This document shows positions 3,112 through 58,601 of a stretch of DNA of 64,000 nucleotides, piece after piece. The stretch lies in the sequence record MH752840.1, one strand, 5' to 3'. The DNA comes from Escherichia phage vB_EcoM-Pr121LW. The translations under genes were made by a program, and so were the position numbers. The notes under the pieces were generated by a model. That model was not told the DNA's origin. It searched no databases and was given only the letters and a program-made list of their open reading frames with translations. How positions within the stretch are numbered: the stretch's first letter is position 1; every line of letters begins with the position of its first letter.

Positions 3112-3406
3112 TGCAGTCCTCCTTCTGTAGTAGGTCTTTTATAGGATAAACAAGTAAGTGTGGATCGGAATAACGTATAGTCTTATTCTGCCACACTATG
3201 AACTTTATTACAACCAAATTTACAATATCTTTATCACCATGTAGCCCAACACACACATTTGTCCATATTTTGTGGTTGAAGATCTTGCTATCGATGTAGA
3301 TTTTAGTGTCAAACTTATCTTCCATTCTACCTATAAGTTTGATCAGCTCCTTCATCTGGTCGCCAAACACAGCATCTTTTTCAAGATCTCTGGAATGCTT
3401 GTACAT
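3098..3406 (-). CDS. hypothetical protein
   Basis: 102-aa ORF co-oriented in the minus-strand block. Confidence 0.4.
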   Translation of the reverse strand: MYKHSRDLEKDAVFGDQMKELIKLIGRMEDKFDTKIYIDSKIFNHKIWTNVCVGLHGDKDIVNLVVIKFIVWQNKTIRYSDPHLLVYPIKDLLQKEDCNAVI

Positions 3407-51129: not shown

Positions 51130-52875
51130 ATGGCGCAAGACATGACAAGCTTTGAGCAGGCGGTAGATCAAGTAATTGTTGATTCTGAACGTTTGCACCT
51201 GATTGTCAACGGTAACGCTGTGGATGAGGTTGTCGTAGAGGATGGGACCACCATCCCTACGGTACGAAAAGCCATGCTTGACACCCTTTATTTTAAAACG
51301 CCGCCGATCCCTTGGGCGTATGGTGCATCCACAACAGTTTTTAACCAGCTATATGAGTTTAAAGGGGACACAGGGCCCCAGTGGTGGTACGCTCCCGCAG
51401 CATCAAAATCTAACCCGGTTAGAATGCCAGCAGATCCTTCACAATCCCCAAACTGGAGATTATATACTGACTCTGCAGTAATGGCAAAATACTACGCAAA
51501 ACTTAACAGCCCAAGGTTCGAAGGTGACCCGCGAGCACCTACACCCCCAATGGACGATAAGTCAGAGTCTATAGCAAACACAGAGTTTGTTGTTGACTAT
51601 GTTGATAGCATATTTAAAGCCATGGAGGGGATGAAAGTTACTGTAGGATCTTTGGTGGTAAAAGGTCTTACAGAACTCGCTAACACCATAGTTGGTGGCA
51701 CCCTTACCTTACATGGACCTGTTAATGGGGCAGATTCTACTGCACGCTTTAGGAATCTAATCCTCACGGCAAATACTTCTACACTTACTTTTGCGTGGAG
51801 CGATCCTAAGCATGCAGACTGGAGAAGTACAGAGCTGCAACCTCATGAAGTGTCCACCCACAGGGTTATAGCTGACACTATAACTTCTGGGAAACCAGTG
51901 GCTAATAATAACGATGTACATTTTGATGGTCTGGGTAATAACTTTTTTGACTACGTGTACATTCGTGGTAATGCCATGAAGGCAGCAACCGAACCGACAT
52001 TGCAGGTCGATGGGACCACCAGGGTTAAGAACCTTGAGGTGACAGGTACCGTTACAGGGATAACCTACTCTGTTGATGGCACCATGATCTACCCTAGCTA
52101 TATCGAAAGCACGGGTGATGCATTGATAAATGGCGATTTGGAGGTTGGCGGGTCTGTAGTTATTCGAGGTACAGCCTCTATCCAAAATATAGCTCTGAAT
52201 ACTCTAAGGGTCAATGAGCGTGCAACTTTTGAAGGAGAAGGGCTTACAGCCAATAAAGGTACAATTACCGAGCTGACCTCCACCACTTTGACTGCAACAA
52301 CTGCAAACTCTGAAAACTGCAACATTACCAGAAACTTGCAGGTAAATGGAGATGTTAGTTTAAACGCCGCAGGGACTGGCACCACCTACCTTCACAATCT
52401 TGAAATATCCGGCACAGTGACCGGGTGGCTGCCAGACTTCTCTAATGTCAACTTTGTCTGTAATGGTATTAACTCCAGTGGTAAGATAACCACCTCTCAA
52501 GAAATTGAGGCTGGTAAAACCATCACTGCCCCTACTTTCCACGCAGGGAAGGTAGATTTCGATTTAGAGGAGGTTGACGCGTCCAGTGGGACATGGACAC
52601 CTAACGGGCAGGCCAGTATGTATGTTGTCCACGCTAAAGGGGATTTTACAATAGGGCAGTGGCCTGGGACATCAGCGGAAGATAAACCTTATCCATTTAC
52701 TGCGGTTATCTATGTAATTCAGGATGCTGTAGGTCACAACGTGACTTTGCACGATAAGTATGCTATCCTGTCGGCAACACCTGTTATTAACAACAAGGCT
52801 AACAGTGTTACCTTGCTGCAATTAACGTATTGTGGTGTTGGTGATATCGTAGATGTAGTAATTGCACAACGTTAA
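51130..52875 (+). CDS. tail fibre or tail collar protein
   Basis: 581 aa; APTPPMDDKSESIANTEFVVDYV resembles the conserved N-terminal collar motif of phage fibres. Confidence 0.5.
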   Translation: MAQDMTSFEQAVDQVIVDSERLHLIVNGNAVDEVVVEDGTTIPTVRKAMLDTLYFKTPPIPWAYGASTTVFNQLYEFKGDTGPQWWYAPAASKSNPVRMPADPSQSPNWRLYTDSAVMAKYYAKLNSPRFEGDPRAPTPPMDDKSESIANTEFVVDYVDSIFKAMEGMKVTVGSLVVKGLTELANTIVGGTLTLHGPVNGADSTARFRNLILTANTSTLTFAWSDPKHADWRSTELQPHEVSTHRVIADTITSGKPVANNNDVHFDGLGNNFFDYVYIRGNAMKAATEPTLQVDGTTRVKNLEVTGTVTGITYSVDGTMIYPSYIESTGDALINGDLEVGGSVVIRGTASIQNIALNTLRVNERATFEGEGLTANKGTITELTSTTLTATTANSENCNITRNLQVNGDVSLNAAGTGTTYLHNLEISGTVTGWLPDFSNVNFVCNGINSSGKITTSQEIEAGKTITAPTFHAGKVDFDLEEVDASSGTWTPNGQASMYVVHAKGDFTIGQWPGTSAEDKPYPFTAVIYVIQDAVGHNVTLHDKYAILSATPVINNKANSVTLLQLTYCGVGDIVDVVIAQR

Positions 52876-52880
52876 TATAT

Positions 52881-52906
52881 CTAACCGCTCCTGACGGGGC
52901 GGTTTT
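52881..52906 (+). terminator. rho-independent terminator
   Basis: Hairpin AACCGC-TCCTGACGG-GGCGGTT followed by a T-run. Confidence 0.6.
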
Positions 52907-52923
52907 CTTATCTGGAGAACACA

Positions 52924-55900
52924 ATGCTTCCAATCCCTTTGCTAAAACTTGGTCGTCATTTCCTCGATAAGAGGGGTGGAATTAAGGAACTTGCTGTTCT
53001 GTCATACCCAATAGACAACAGTGATGGTACAAGCAATACAGTATCCTATGTAAATAGCTTAGCTATACTTTTTGATGATGGTCAGCTTAATATTACTGGC
53101 TATAATAGGTTCGGAGAGTGTCGGACTGGAGATCTTGATACAATAAACTATCCTAATGAGGCAGCTTGGAACGTAGACCATGTTTGGAGAGCTGACCGTG
53201 CATTTGTAATCCGCACATTCGATAATAAATTTTTCTATATTGGTTGCACAGCTGGTCTTATCGGATCTGAGGCAGCAGGTGGAAACGATGTTTGTGTCAG
53301 AGAGTGGACACCTTTGCCGGAACAGATTGTAACAGGGTTGCATTTGGACACCCATCCTGAGAGACTTGTTGAAGTAATGGGTGGCGTAAACAATACAGTG
53401 TGGGTAATTGCTGCACCAGAGGCTGATGGTATGCTTCACCTGTACGGCTCTGGCAATAATACTTACGGCTCTCTTCATGTTGACAAAAATCAACACGCTA
53501 CTCCAGTTAAGATTGGTGAAACATCTGAAAGTCCAGAGACAGGTCCTTGGAAAAATCCAAGAATTAATTGTGAAGTTCATGACAACTCGGTTATTTTTGG
53601 TGGTCCTAACGGATTCTGGATTGCAGGTTACGATTTCTTAAGAAATAACAGCAAAAACGCACTAGTTTATCCAGCCGAGCATGTGACTCTTGACCAGTTT
53701 AAAGGCATCCCAGTGGGCGAGACATGGAAAGGGTTCATGTGTGGGCCTAATGGTGCAATTATAGCCACAGAAAGGATGCACAAACCTGATGACCAACAGC
53801 TTGTTAATGTGTTTTATGGTCAGGATGTTTGGGGTGACGACACGTGGAGAAGCCTTAACATCACCTATACCCATGAAGTAATTATGGCTCGCGGGTACGG
53901 GACTAGTGGAATTTTCTTCAATAATGGTACAAAACAGTACCGTGGTTTCTCCAGAAACCTGTGTAACGATATTGGTGCTCAATCTGCTAATAATAATCCT
54001 AGGGCCAATTTTATTCATTACAGAGCGCTGGCAACAGCTAAGTTTGTTGAACAGACAGAGCCAGTAAGCTGGACAGAAAGCGTTTATTTTCAAGGGATCC
54101 ACAGGGAAGGTTTCTTAGGCACATTTTGTGTGGTAAATGGAAAGCTTTGGTGGTCAGGAATACCACGTGGTAGTTTTTCAGGATCTAATAACCTCTTTGG
54201 CGGCAGACTTAACAGCCAAGGGTTCACAGAGATTCCGGAGAATTGGTATAAAAATGTCCCGGTAGATAGCTGGGGTATCGAAGACATCTTTGATGTCAAT
54301 GGTGTGAGCAATGCTAGCAACATTTACATTGGAGATACTGTCAAGATGAAATTGAAACCTCAGCCGGAGGGTGCTACGTTCATTATTGACAAGATTGAGT
54401 TGGTAAATGCTGCAGGCACTGTTGTTACAGATGCAAACTATCAGTTCTCCACTAACTGGAACCATGGTGGTGCTAACGAAGTTGTGGTTACCCAGTATAA
54501 CCGTAACATCAACAGACGTGGTTTGTATTCTATCAAGATCACCTACCATGACAAGCATGGCACTGGAAGAACCTATACGACAAGGACTTTGAACTGGAAC
54601 ACTATAGTTCCTGCGTATCCGTCCGACGGCAAGTGGCATACCGTTGGTAGAAACAAGCAGTTCCATGTTAACGATACTGTATACTTTGGGCTGAATGGGA
54701 CCCAGCCTGCAGTAGAAGGGGATACATCGTATATGGTCAGACTCCACAGAATGGATGCTGGATCAGTCACTTATGATGTGACCCAAGAGATCTACGATCA
54801 AAGACGCGCCACGTATGACAATATTGTGAAAACACAAGCCTTGTGGGAGTTCAATCCCAATGGCAAGGGTGGTAAAATGTTGCAGGTTAATGAGCAGAAC
54901 GGAACGTCGTTGACTGTTCACGAACACCCAGACCCTTGGCCTGATCCTGGAAAACCTCACCCGGGAGCTCGTACACTGAAAATTGTCAGCCATGATGCAG
55001 GATATTTCGGAATACGCTGGGAAGCCACAGTAAGATATGCCGACGGGACAACAAACAACATAGGGATCACCCTTGGTGGCACTAGTGAGGATAACTCACT
55101 GAAAATTGCCTATACCCCTAGAGGCATCTCTATTGATAATATGGATGTTGTTCGCAACGGTTACGGTGATGTAAATGTCAAAGTTACTCTTGGTGAACAT
55201 CTCGGTGGGGAAAGGATCATCATGTATGCCTTTGATCATGATCCTCGCACCAACGGAACCTATGCAAATCAGGCGTGGAGTTACCTGATAAATGCACCTG
55301 AGCCGAATACTAAAGAGTTTTATTACGGTATGAAGCGGGATGTGTGCAAGAAAACAGGGACACATGATTGGATTGCTATCTGCGTTAAAGATGAACGAAC
55401 CGCTTGGGACGAGCCTGTTAACCGATGGTTCATAGGGATTCCCACCAGAAGTGATAAGTATGTCGCAGAATATATTGTGTGCATGGGCGGCACCAACCTG
55501 AACTTGTGTTGGAACGAGGATGCAAATAAATACTCTGATTATGACTATATGAGGGATATCTCTTGCAATCAGTGGTTTAGCCAATCAACAGGTTACCCTC
55601 CAAGACAGGCGAGAGTAAACCCTGCAATCTTCACAGACACGCAGGTTTTCTTGACAAAACAGGCCAACGAGGTTCAGACATTCAAGAATAAATACGATCC
55701 TAACAAGTGGTTCTACAACTGTTACGGCGCATTTTTCTGGGGACCTGGTGAGTTACCTGGTGGAGGATCTTGCTTGAATGAGGCAACTTACGCCAGTGAC
55801 TACATCATGGGGCAGGTCAAGAAGTATAAGATAATCCCCGGTCCTGAGACTTTGGGCAATGCCGTTGACCCTTATATCATCATGACTGCACTGAGATCAA

Positions 55901-58560
55901 ACATGGATGGGACATCCATGTCCATGCAAATTCCGGTAACAAACGGATACAAACGTGTTGTGATGATCATTAAGTGCGACCTGATAGGTAAACAAGTTCT
56001 TGCAGAAAACGGGACATCCACACATCCTTTTGAGATCGCTCTACACTATCAGTTTGCTGACTCACCTTTTGCAGGGGATAAGAGAATATCTGATACAGAC
56101 GCACAGCGTTGTAAGAAAGTATTGTTGGGTGCAGGTTGGTGGTGGTATGAGTTTGATTTAACAGATAAATTCACCGACACGTCTAAAGTTGTAACAGGAC
56201 TTCGTCTAGACTTTGGCGAGAACATGCACAAAGCTGTTTGTGATGGCACCTATGGTGACCCTACAATATACCTAAAATATGTTTCTTTTGAGCATCCGGA
56301 AGATGTTGTCTACGGTCCAAAACTGAGATTGTTTGGCAGCTGGATTGCAAAAGATAGGGTAGGTATGGGTAAGAAGGTAAGAGGGTTCTTGGTTGATGCA
56401 GGAACAGAAGACATGCTGGTTAATGCAGTATGGCCTGAATTACCTGGGACTCAGTGGGACAACTCAGCCAAATCTGTAAACTGGTTTAACATTCATAGGG
56501 CCATGTGGACCACTAACTGCTACTTGTGGAGAGAGCTTAACGATCAGGCCTTTGGCTTCAGCGATGGTAGAAGGATGGCGATCATTTGCTGGACAACACT
56601 GCAAAGATGTTATGACCATAACTATGAGATTGGAGGCAGGGAATGGAAAAATATCAGGGACAGAATCATAACCAATTTTGCAGACGACAACGGTGGCGGA
56701 GCACATAACTTTGGCACAAGCCGACTCATCCATTTGAACGGATCCTCAGCCTACAAGAAAGAAGGATACTCTGGGTCCATGATTGAGTGGGGTCTGGTAA
56801 AAGATGCTCGTGTGTTGATGGGTCAGCAACTTGCTGCTGCAATAGGGCCGAACGCAGTACAATCTGTTAAACCAGCGTGGTTCGATATCCCATTATGGTC
56901 ATCTGGAACACCAGGAACTGCTGCAATCAACCCTGCCACTGGGGATTTGGAAATCTCCTGGGAAGACTTGAAGCAGGTCGGTGGTTGGGACAAAACAGGG
57001 TATCAGGTTCAGTGGTGGAGAGCTGACGGATCTTTAGCCGCTGATGAGTTTGTTAAGGACAATTTCTACACCATGTCCTCTGCAAAAGCACAGGAATTGT
57101 TCGGTCAGGCAACTCCGTCAACGATCACCATGTCCATGTGCTGTAAAGACAACAGGACTGGAGCTTTGGGGCCAAGGGTTGCTAAGGTTTTCTCAGGTAT
57201 TAAATGGAATCCCTCTGTTCAAAGTGTTTCATGGAAGCAAATAGGTGATAACAAGCTGCTAGTTACCCCCGCCTGTCAGTTCAACGCAACTCTTAACGTT
57301 GATCCTGCTGCTGCGGCAAACTCAGCTAAAGCTTCTGACTTCTCTGTGTCTAACACTGCTATGGCAGATGTGAGGAAGATTGACACGCTGAACGCCAGAA
57401 TTACCTGTAAAAACACTTATGGCACATTCCAGATCATCAACAACTTCACAGATGCTGATTCTAAGGTAGTGAGGACAGCAAGCCAGACTCTGAGTTTAGG
57501 AACTCTGGCCTATGCAGCCCTGATCACTGAACAGTCGGCAACACTCCAAGGAGGTGGTGTAGGCAAGTCTATTACAACACCTGTGTGGAAGCCAAATGAG
57601 TGGGTTGTGTTTGATTTGACTGTGGACTTCTCCAGTGATAATAACTGGACATGGGTAAGGGATTGCTTGTCACAACTGATGGGTGGTCCAAGCTCCGTTA
57701 GTGATAGCCACGACTCCACTGACCCGAGTGTGTTTCAGGTGGGTAAAACTCACCCGGAGACTGGAGCAACTTTGCCTGACAGGAAGTATGCTTTGGTTTG
57801 CATCTCTTACGGAAAAGCAGATGTCACCTTCTCAGGAACACACACTTATAACGGTACATATAACTTCTCAAGGAAGTATAGTCTCAAGGCAGGGAACATT
57901 ATAGATGAGGTTGGTCCGTTATATAACCCTGGCAACGGGATAGGGATTGTAGGCGGCAAACTGCAGATGCAGGAACCTTCTATTACTCCTTCCAACGTGT
58001 CTGGGATCAGGAAGACTTGGGAAAGTAACAATACTGGCATCGCAACTGTGGATGCTACCACCGGACTGGTAACATTTAAAGCTCCCGGTGATGTCACTAT
58101 AACGTTTATAGTTACTGATGATGCAGGGCGCAAAACGTCTTCAACATCTTTTACTGTCAAACAGATGGCACCACAGTGGAGAATGTGGATAGGTACAGCA
58201 ACAAACGGGGCATACCCTAATCCGGCAGGTACTTCTGGTATGAAGACTTTCTCTACAAGCGAACCGATGGAGTACGGCAGCGGTCCTAAGGTAGGACAGA
58301 TGGTATACTTTGGTGCGTATATTCCTGAAATTATAGGGCTTCCGAGAAGTCAGCTTCAGTTGCTGTTTGGGGCTGGTGTTGACGATCTTGCCACTTTCGG
58401 GTATAGCGACAACATCGAGGCTGCAAGGAGTTCAGGATGGGTAGGGTTCAGAATGGAGTCTGGAAAGGAAGGCAGGATTCTAGGGACAGCCTCTATAGGT
58501 GTTATGTTCCCTGGTGACCAGCAGTATCGCCTGAAAGCCTACGCAACTTTCTCTCTTTAA
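52924..58560 (+). CDS. giant virion-associated protein with Ig-like (Big_2-type) domain
   Basis: 1878-aa uninterrupted ORF behind a GGAGAA RBS; Ig-like segment SGIRKTWESNNTGIATVDATTGLVTFKAPGDVTITFIVTDDAGRKTSSTSFTV near the C-terminus. Confidence 0.55.
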   Translation: MLPIPLLKLGRHFLDKRGGIKELAVLSYPIDNSDGTSNTVSYVNSLAILFDDGQLNITGYNRFGECRTGDLDTINYPNEAAWNVDHVWRADRAFVIRTFDNKFFYIGCTAGLIGSEAAGGNDVCVREWTPLPEQIVTGLHLDTHPERLVEVMGGVNNTVWVIAAPEADGMLHLYGSGNNTYGSLHVDKNQHATPVKIGETSESPETGPWKNPRINCEVHDNSVIFGGPNGFWIAGYDFLRNNSKNALVYPAEHVTLDQFKGIPVGETWKGFMCGPNGAIIATERMHKPDDQQLVNVFYGQDVWGDDTWRSLNITYTHEVIMARGYGTSGIFFNNGTKQYRGFSRNLCNDIGAQSANNNPRANFIHYRALATAKFVEQTEPVSWTESVYFQGIHREGFLGTFCVVNGKLWWSGIPRGSFSGSNNLFGGRLNSQGFTEIPENWYKNVPVDSWGIEDIFDVNGVSNASNIYIGDTVKMKLKPQPEGATFIIDKIELVNAAGTVVTDANYQFSTNWNHGGANEVVVTQYNRNINRRGLYSIKITYHDKHGTGRTYTTRTLNWNTIVPAYPSDGKWHTVGRNKQFHVNDTVYFGLNGTQPAVEGDTSYMVRLHRMDAGSVTYDVTQEIYDQRRATYDNIVKTQALWEFNPNGKGGKMLQVNEQNGTSLTVHEHPDPWPDPGKPHPGARTLKIVSHDAGYFGIRWEATVRYADGTTNNIGITLGGTSEDNSLKIAYTPRGISIDNMDVVRNGYGDVNVKVTLGEHLGGERIIMYAFDHDPRTNGTYANQAWSYLINAPEPNTKEFYYGMKRDVCKKTGTHDWIAICVKDERTAWDEPVNRWFIGIPTRSDKYVAEYIVCMGGTNLNLCWNEDANKYSDYDYMRDISCNQWFSQSTGYPPRQARVNPAIFTDTQVFLTKQANEVQTFKNKYDPNKWFYNCYGAFFWGPGELPGGGSCLNEATYASDYIMGQVKKYKIIPGPETLGNAVDPYIIMTALRSNMDGTSMSMQIPVTNGYKRVVMIIKCDLIGKQVLAENGTSTHPFEIALHYQFADSPFAGDKRISDTDAQRCKKVLLGAGWWWYEFDLTDKFTDTSKVVTGLRLDFGENMHKAVCDGTYGDPTIYLKYVSFEHPEDVVYGPKLRLFGSWIAKDRVGMGKKVRGFLVDAGTEDMLVNAVWPELPGTQWDNSAKSVNWFNIHRAMWTTNCYLWRELNDQAFGFSDGRRMAIICWTTLQRCYDHNYEIGGREWKNIRDRIITNFADDNGGGAHNFGTSRLIHLNGSSAYKKEGYSGSMIEWGLVKDARVLMGQQLAAAIGPNAVQSVKPAWFDIPLWSSGTPGTAAINPATGDLEISWEDLKQVGGWDKTGYQVQWWRADGSLAADEFVKDNFYTMSSAKAQELFGQATPSTITMSMCCKDNRTGALGPRVAKVFSGIKWNPSVQSVSWKQIGDNKLLVTPACQFNATLNVDPAAAANSAKASDFSVSNTAMADVRKIDTLNARITCKNTYGTFQIINNFTDADSKVVRTASQTLSLGTLAYAALITEQSATLQGGGVGKSITTPVWKPNEWVVFDLTVDFSSDNNWTWVRDCLSQLMGGPSSVSDSHDSTDPSVFQVGKTHPETGATLPDRKYALVCISYGKADVTFSGTHTYNGTYNFSRKYSLKAGNIIDEVGPLYNPGNGIGIVGGKLQMQEPSITPSNVSGIRKTWESNNTGIATVDATTGLVTFKAPGDVTITFIVTDDAGRKTSSTSFTVKQMAPQWRMWIGTATNGAYPNPAGTSGMKTFSTSEPMEYGSGPKVGQMVYFGAYIPEIIGLPRSQLQLLFGAGVDDLATFGYSDNIEAARSSGWVGFRMESGKEGRILGTASIGVMFPGDQQYRLKAYATFSL

Positions 58561-58571
58561 CAAGCGGTAAA

Positions 58572-58601
58572 TAAAAAGGGGCCAAATGGCCCCTTTCTTT
58601 T
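58572..58601. terminator. bidirectional rho-independent terminator
   Basis: Palindrome AAAAAGGGGCC-AAAT-GGCCCCTTTCTTTTT between convergent gene blocks. Confidence 0.75.

Follow-up and report, generated by a model that had tools for sequence, protein, structure and literature searches.

rV5-like phages are used for Escherichia coli O157 typing and for biocontrol, are valued for their broad host range, and carry roughly nine 'fibre' genes whose roles are still to be sorted out; which of these genes form which fibre has been stated to be unclear (PMC8594841). The product of ORF 27 in rV5 (gp27, ABI79098.1) is labelled 'hypothetical protein, cell wall surface anchor', and its counterparts bas58_0041 and bas54_0041 are labelled 'lateral tail fiber protein with intimin domain'. 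Here we analyse the corresponding gene of Escherichia phage vB_EcoM-Pr121LW, an rV5-like myophage of the genus Vequintavirus, within a 64,000-nucleotide (nt) stretch of its sequence record MH752840.1, hereafter the window. The giant open reading frame (ORF) at 52924..58560 on the plus strand, which starts with ATG and encodes 1878 amino acids (aa; 208 kDa, pI 6.1), is by sequence the ortholog of all three, sharing 94% protein identity with bas54_0041 and 92–97% with rV5 and seven other Vequintavirus orthologs. As a known rV5 gp27 ortholog with a dedicated PHROGs family (phrog_15684, function unknown, which matches aa 1–1877 over profile positions 1–1877 of 1878), the gene is already catalogued, and it is unstudied functionally; the gain from the present analysis is therefore a better annotation and a hypothesis, not a new entity. 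New here are the assignment of the N-terminus as a propeller, a cross-genus series in which the extension behind that propeller grows, a conserved attenuator-like hairpin and the co-occurrence of the gene with a particular fibre head. We posit, with a probability of about one half, that the gp27-family protein is a non-essential, low-abundance and probably monomeric accessory tail adhesin.

Profile comparisons show the N-terminal ~450 residues (aa 1–450, 52924..54273, plus strand) to be an RCC1-like beta-propeller, predicted to be seven-bladed, which begins with an invariant M-x-P-I-P and which we propose as the virion-docking module. A profile built from a seven-sequence family alignment of this domain (A4), searched against the PDB, matched, over several blades, HERC1 (7e-11), UVR8 (2e-10), HERC2, RCC2, RPGR and RCC1 (5e-3). 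Among homologs, WD40_RLD (PF25390) matches 12 of 16, and Pfam RCC1 or WD40_RLD matches occur in an 890-aa Phapecoctavirus protein, in Seunavirus GAP31_232 and in Certrevirus CR9 gp033; the cut-off of the RCC1 repeat (PF00415; 21.7 bits) is passed by GAP31_232 (32.7 bits) and nepoznato gp039 (24.3 bits). The N-terminal segment of the window protein itself scores 20.7 bits against WD40_RLD (E 2.8e-4), under the curated cut-off of 150, and 13.7 bits against RCC1_2, under the cut-off of 22. Since the window protein alone stays below the Pfam cut-offs, the propeller assignment rests on family homology and on the family profile. Conservation across the family peaks at aa 1–450 (~75% mean identity to the query) and is 20–40% beyond aa 1450, and aa 1–207 align with the first part of the 890-aa Phapecoctavirus 'tail protein' at 39% identity (E 2e-27). 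The AlphaFold2 (AF2) model of aa 1–450 is beta-rich, with block means of the predicted local distance difference test (pLDDT) of 21–69, and an hhalign self-comparison of the N-terminal alignment gave no significant internal blade repeat. The segment is also matched by phrog_4219 (E 9e-7), whose label 'regulator of chromosome condensation / DNA metabolism' we reject as a carry-over of the fold name, together with the role in DNA packaging on which the papers on phAPEC6 and W70 speculate.

In Vequintavirus, Phapecoctavirus, Seunavirus, Certrevirus and two uncultured relatives (L004, L005), the propeller gene comes last in the block of tail-fibre genes, always directly 3' of a gp28-type (phiTE_241-like) fibre gene. 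Its product measures 388 aa in CR9, where it is a propeller only, and 567, 890 or 1878–1976 aa elsewhere, so that the C-terminal extension ranges from 0 aa in CR9 to ~1430 aa in the window. Phapecoctavirus gp039 (890 aa), the Seunavirus proteins GAP31_232, 4MG gp038 and PVP-SE1 gp40 (~567–604 aa) and Certrevirus CR9 gp033 (388 aa) share the homologous propeller and its MxPIP start at 25–39% identity, and in all three genera the position of the gene after a gp28-type fibre and the hairpin that precedes it match the window. The Phapecoctavirus and Seunavirus versions continue with Big_2 domains after the propeller. The versions of these three genera differ from the window protein in what follows: extensions of 0–470 aa in these genera compare with ~1430 aa here, which include a family-restricted central region and another C-terminus, whereas the Phapecoctavirus version appears, from its sequence pattern as judged by eye, to end in a leucine-rich-repeat-like segment instead. 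The C-terminal third of nepoznato gp039 (L003 9001-11673) carries 'F.GC.SLT.IP..LF' repeats reminiscent of BspA-type leucine-rich repeats, so that here the shared propeller anchor would carry another kind of binding module.

Two further features accompany the propeller gene. The upstream fibres are homologous throughout, with the exception of the Phapecoctavirus fibre, whose homology is limited to the head, the final ~105 aa; this head (window 52558-52872; L003 8642-8956) is 48–55% identical to that of Phapecoctavirus gp038, with 50% for the fibre of the window. That only the head is shared with the Phapecoctavirus fibre indicates that head and propeller gene travel together, and their co-occurrence suggests a docking site. 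Secondly, a GC-rich hairpin followed by a T-run lies in the 35–50-nt gap before the propeller gene in five genera, with folding energies of −13.6 to −18.3 kcal/mol (gaps at window 52876-52923; L003 8960-9000; L004/L005 7966-8000; L014 3457-3500; L016 3454-3491; L017 10729-10766). Its structure is kept and its stem sequence is not, which suggests a conserved transcriptional attenuator. In the window this intrinsic-terminator-like hairpin (52883-52904, plus strand) stands between the gp28-type fibre gene and the giant ORF and has a 9-bp stem with 6 GC pairs and, behind it, a T-rich tail (TTCTTATC); the intergenic fold reaches −16.7 kcal/mol, no promoter-like site was seen in the 48-nt gap, and in phage Murica the annotation marks the hairpin before the gp27-type gene as a terminator.

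Behind the propeller the protein is largely a series of beta-sandwich domains, which AF2 places at ~aa 452–564, 733–840, 940–1125, 1332–1425 and 1501–1760, followed by a C-terminal beta domain. The model of aa 1–900, made with a 17-sequence alignment, has a mean pLDDT of 47 and is too poor for a fold search, and that of aa 721–1878 has a mean of 55 and is usable for single beta domains only. The first stretch of immunoglobulin (Ig)-like beta-sandwiches (aa 451–840, 54274..55443, plus strand) has domains at ~452–564 and 733–840 with pLDDT of 55–82 in these blocks and no domain delimited in the stretch between them, and Pfam Bact_surface_Ig-like matches homologs at ~aa 506–558. Tandem beta-sandwich domains of fibronectin type III (FN3)/Ig-like type occupy aa 1332–1760 (56917..58203, plus strand) and include a bacterial Ig-like Big_2 domain (PF02368; aa 1682–1733, 57967..58122, plus strand) that scores 31.4 bits against a Pfam cut-off of 22.8 and is modelled at pLDDT 80–91. 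This domain agrees with the Ig-like segment at about 57990–58150 that the first-pass annotation, made from the window alone, had pointed out; it is also the 'intimin domain' of some annotations, and a PDB sequence search matched an intimin D-domain in this region (E 0.0025). PDB sequence searches with the full-length protein and with profile A1 returned the intimin Ig-like match or nothing, and Foldseek against PDB and BFVD returned generic tandem Ig, cadherin and S-layer arrays and fragments of the same gene. Fold comparison also gave possible matches to carbohydrate-binding-module (CBM) or lectin-like jelly rolls. A precomputed Pfam match, PF26918.1, is listed for a cluster representative that is 93% identical to the window protein and was absent from the Pfam scans run here.

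Between these two arrays lies a Trp-rich central region of ~490 aa (aa 841–1331, 55444..56916, plus strand) that is highly conserved within the family, has many invariant residues, and matched nothing in Pfam or the PDB. A phmmer search with aa 836–1325 against 1.84 billion representative proteins recovered the gp27 family and a single outsider, a Cys/His-rich repeat protein (P0019) that we dismissed as spurious; segment searches with aa 1–470 and aa 831–1330 likewise found fragments of the same gene only. AF2 confidence is low across the region except at aa 940–1125 (55741..56298, plus strand), a modelled beta-jelly-roll that is possibly a CBM or lectin-like domain. At the other end of the protein, amino-acid variation concentrates in the last ~130 residues. 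The variable C-terminal domain (aa 1751–1878, 58174..58557, plus strand), which we propose as the ligand-binding tip, shows nonsynonymous divergence (dN) of 0.09–0.21 and a ratio of nonsynonymous to synonymous divergence (dN/dS) of up to 0.37 among nine Vequintavirus orthologs, as against 0.01–0.14 elsewhere. Two alleles of this domain exist in Vequintaviruses, at ~96% and ~85% identity and with different endings.

From these features we propose the following mechanism. The propeller would anchor the protein to the virion, most likely at the neighbouring gp28-type fibre, on the C-terminal head that accompanies the propeller gene. The hairpin conserved upstream would throttle transcription, leading to few copies, and the long beta-sandwich arm would present the possible CBM-like module and the variable tip, which may bind surface polysaccharide or another environmental glycan. 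The phage would thereby adsorb better to certain natural hosts, whereas on laboratory E. coli K-12 the binding would be unneeded. Far more tentatively, we entertain a specific version in which gp27 is a monomeric 'tip adhesin' whose propeller plugs onto the head at the far end of a trimeric baseplate fibre of the gp28 / phiTE_241 type, whose expression is throttled by the attenuator, whose ~490-aa region is possibly a new glycan-binding or glycan-cleaving fold, and which explains unassigned fibre density in Bas49 and Bas54. If this were true, tip adhesins would be an undescribed class of phage host-recognition accessory.

An accessory role is consistent with what is known of dispensability. 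In a transposon screen of Bas54, bas54_0041 tolerated disruptive insertions (preprint 10.1101/2025.11.20.689424), from which it follows that neither infection of E. coli K-12 nor the making of infective virions requires the gene; in the same screen some fibre genes were conditionally essential on clinical isolates (10.1101/2025.11.20.689424). The gene is also broken in nature: in phage ime (L008 301-5935) the loss of 2 bp at ORF nt 3155-3156 splits it, and in phage V18 (L009 1772-6334) it is reduced to four ORFs with ~1 kb deleted, both consistent with an accessory role. In phages Alma and APECc02 it is annotated as two ORFs. For a place on the virion, rV5 gp27 itself has an entry in the virion proteome table of that phage, but relatives provide most of the evidence. 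CB7_37, encoded at the equivalent position in Certrevirus CB7, is a virion protein confirmed by tandem mass spectrometry (MS/MS) (KY514263 annotation; PMC7344957), and phage W70 virions contain three RCC1-like proteins of phrog_4219 confirmed by mass spectrometry (MS) (PMC11370258). PVP-SE1 gp40, a clear propeller-family member, is listed among the structural proteins of its phage. A 'proteomics' paper on an O177 phage is in silico only and was not taken as virion evidence.

Several observations weigh against the accessory-adhesin proposal. In the rV5 proteome table gp27 is represented by three non-tryptic, low-score peptides that cover 3.1% of the protein, which puts it level with rIIA (PMC3606486 supplement 5), and the text of that paper does not name gp27 among the detected proteins (PMC3606486). 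Cryo-electron microscopy (cryo-EM) of Bas49 and Bas54 resolved three of the nine annotated fibres, the gp27 ortholog not among them; no structure places gp27 on the virion, and fibre class TC8, which has extra density, is a candidate for the gp28 ortholog. CB7_37 is linked only weakly to the propeller family (hhalign E 9e-4, probability 23%), the low AF2 confidence leaves both the CBM-like assignment and the monomer inference soft, and the ligand and attenuation by the hairpin are proposals only. Virion association, which the first-pass annotation had made the test of its suggestion, is accordingly backed by weak evidence in rV5, in the form of three low-quality peptides, and otherwise indirectly by relatives.

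Each of the rival explanations we considered fits fewer observations than the accessory adhesin. One, which follows the BASEL annotation, is that gp27 is a classical trimeric lateral tail fibre, one of three rV5-like fibre sets and the primary receptor-binding protein. The pattern of a conserved N-terminus and a variable C-terminus is typical of fibres, but searches of Pfam, NCBIfam and PHROG found no coiled coil, triple beta-helix, S74 or other intramolecular chaperone, tail-fibre N-terminal adaptor or catalytic beta-helix. The N-terminus is instead an RCC1-like propeller, and the body resembles monomeric tandem-Ig arrays and, possibly, CBMs. With the protein missing from the three fibres resolved in Bas49 and Bas54, dispensable on K-12 and, judging by gene numbering, apparently left out of the tail fibres by the authors of the phage LL12 study, we regard a trimeric fibre as unlikely. 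The first-pass suggestion of a very long adhesin-like or receptor-binding protein thus survives in part: the protein is multi-domain, with a conserved N-terminal module, tandem Ig-like domains and a variable tip, but it is not an essential receptor-binding protein, given that bas54_0041 is dispensable on K-12, and it shows no classical trimeric-fibre features.

The Ig-like domains could alternatively serve to hold the phage in mucus or on glycans rather than on a bacterium, which would make gp27 a Hoc-like decoration protein of the head, neck or sheath. Big_2 and the many Ig-like domains favour this, as does the combination of dispensability in the laboratory with strong purifying selection, and epithelium-binding Ig-like phage adhesins have been demonstrated (PMC13370021). 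Against it, the gene belongs to the tail-fibre module and not to a head module, five genera show the N-terminal module of the protein tied in position to a fibre gene, and Pfam and PHROGs searches recognised no capsid-binding domain and no Hoc family match. A Hoc-like decoration protein therefore seems to us improbable. The match of aa 1593–1877 to phrog_215, which is filed under 'head and packaging' and would point to the head, was not used as evidence: that family is suspected to include split fragments of the same gene, for which separate database entries exist, so its label is not independent.

The central region raises the further alternative of a virion-borne or lysis-released enzyme, in which aa 841–1331 would be a new polysaccharide-degrading or polysaccharide-modifying domain with binding modules on either side, making the protein a depolymerase and not a passive adhesin. 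Conservation of the region with many invariant Asp, Glu, His, Arg and Trp residues, its lack of homologs outside the family, its possible interleaving with a CBM-like jelly roll in an arrangement typical of glycoside hydrolases, and the glycosidase and deacetylase domains encoded by adjacent fibre genes would all fit. None of Pfam, NCBIfam, PHROGs and PDB sequence searches yielded a catalytic family, however, in keeping with the first-pass statement that no catalytic motif was recognisable; AF2 gave no confident fold in the central region, and the support for an enzyme comes down to a mere lack of similarity, such that we consider it quite improbable. Least likely of all, and in our view a marginal prospect, is a non-virion late protein that acts, for example, at the surface of the infected cell or once the cell has lysed. 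Such a protein would account for the marginal rV5 MS evidence, the failure to see the protein in the Bas49 and Bas54 cryo-EM and its not being required to form infective particles, but it sits poorly with an N-terminus in which no signal peptide or transmembrane segment is evident by eye, with a location behind a fibre gene in the late structural operon, across a 48-nt gap lacking a promoter-like site, and with the finding that purified virions from related genera contain RCC1-like proteins and smaller members of the family.

The gene itself is well defined, and the architecture seen by the first-pass annotation, an uninterrupted 1878-residue frame with a good ribosome-binding site between an upstream terminator and a bidirectional downstream one, was recovered in full. 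Translation of the plus strand from 52924 to 58560 meets one stop only, the terminal one, an outcome with a probability of ~1e-50 for 1878 codons at the base composition of the window; the remaining five frames contain 37–177 stops over the same interval. A Shine-Dalgarno GGAG (52914-52917, plus strand) lies 6 nt 5' of the ATG. Upstream, the neighbouring gene (51130..52875, plus strand) encodes the 581-aa gp28-type, phiTE_241-like tail fibre whose C-terminal ~105 aa (aa 477–581) form the head. The annotations of rV5 and of the BASEL phages call this protein a tail fibre, and its homologs in the two uncultured relatives carry Pfam Phage_phiTE_241_N/C. Downstream, an intrinsic terminator (58575-58596) closes the structural block; an A-run and a T-run flank its hairpin, so termination is possible both ways, minus-strand convergent genes lie beyond it, and the rV5 annotation marks the downstream bidirectional terminator on both strands. 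Just downstream of the giant gene in one uncultured relative (L005 15189-16298, minus strand) is a 369-aa ORF with a Pfam match to YadA_anchor, a trimeric autotransporter family; neither the window nor L004 showed an ORF of this type or size at the equivalent place.

The junction between fibre gene and giant ORF is unusually similar among phages. From 52726 to 53070, which takes in the last ~200 nt of the fibre gene, the gap and the first ~150 nt of the ORF, nine Vequintaviruses are 97–100% identical, and from the ATG to about +97 of the giant ORF they are 100% identical. Synonymous divergence (dS) is 0.017 in codons 1–50, against 0.2–0.9 elsewhere in the ORF. This near-identity could reflect a constraint at the nucleotide level or a recombination boundary.

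By megablast the giant ORF matches 120 phage records at 80–99% identity; 107 of the matches are near full length, and nearly all the records are from Escherichia phages of the genus Vequintavirus. In a 5.8-billion-sequence collection only 15 clusters are homologous over most of the length. The dN/dS of 0.079 across nine Vequintavirus orthologs shows a real gene under strong purifying selection. Gene order agrees with orthology: the ORF is last in the tail-fibre block, after gp28 and before the bidirectional terminator and the convergent genes. Fifteen unannotated 'Campylobacter phage' records (MG065635, MG065654, MG065666 and 12 more) show up to 96.5% identity to the gene, and their host labels look doubtful. 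A 318-aa 'hypothetical protein, partial [Eggerthella lenta]' that matches part of the N-terminal domain at 92% identity is probably phage contamination of a bacterial assembly.

The accessory-adhesin reading has consequences for how the rV5-like fibre set is understood. The largest 'fibre' gene reads as a non-standard fibre, an Ig/CBM-type adhesin module conserved together with the gp28 fibre, and a concrete assignment becomes available for unassigned virion density. The analysis also points to a domain-swappable site for host-range engineering.

Compared with described systems, the window protein is closest to the rV5 gp27 group, with which it shares its length (1875–1878 aa), its neighbours and the flanking terminators; nothing substantive differs, the window having the C-terminal allele that ends in 'ATFSL' and Bas54, Bas55, Bas56 and PDX the one that ends in 'TNFPS'. 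With RCC1, the RCC1-like domains of HERC1/2, UVR8 and RPGR it has in common profile similarity over several blades and a predicted seven-bladed binding platform, whereas it bears no sign of their guanine-nucleotide-exchange or chromatin functions. Intimin/invasin, LigB and FdeC resemble it in a Big_2 domain, of which it has one with intimin Ig-like similarity, and in a beta-sandwich rod that ends in a distinct tip. Unlike intimin and invasin, it is without an outer-membrane beta-barrel, a LysM anchor and a C-type-lectin Tir-binding domain. Two NCBIfam intimin models, with cut-offs of 2050 and 1400 bits, score 21.6 and 19.5 bits, aligning ~40–50 residues of one Ig-like domain, and on this sequence comparison the protein is not an intimin. 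T4 Hoc and other phage Ig-like adhesins are likewise dispensable, Ig-rich surface proteins; Hoc-type proteins are thought to bind glycans weakly, and T4 Hoc is roughly one fifth of the size of gp27. What sets gp27 apart from T4 Hoc is its place in a tail-fibre module, its proposed anchoring by a propeller rather than by a capsid-binding domain, and the additional central region that it carries.

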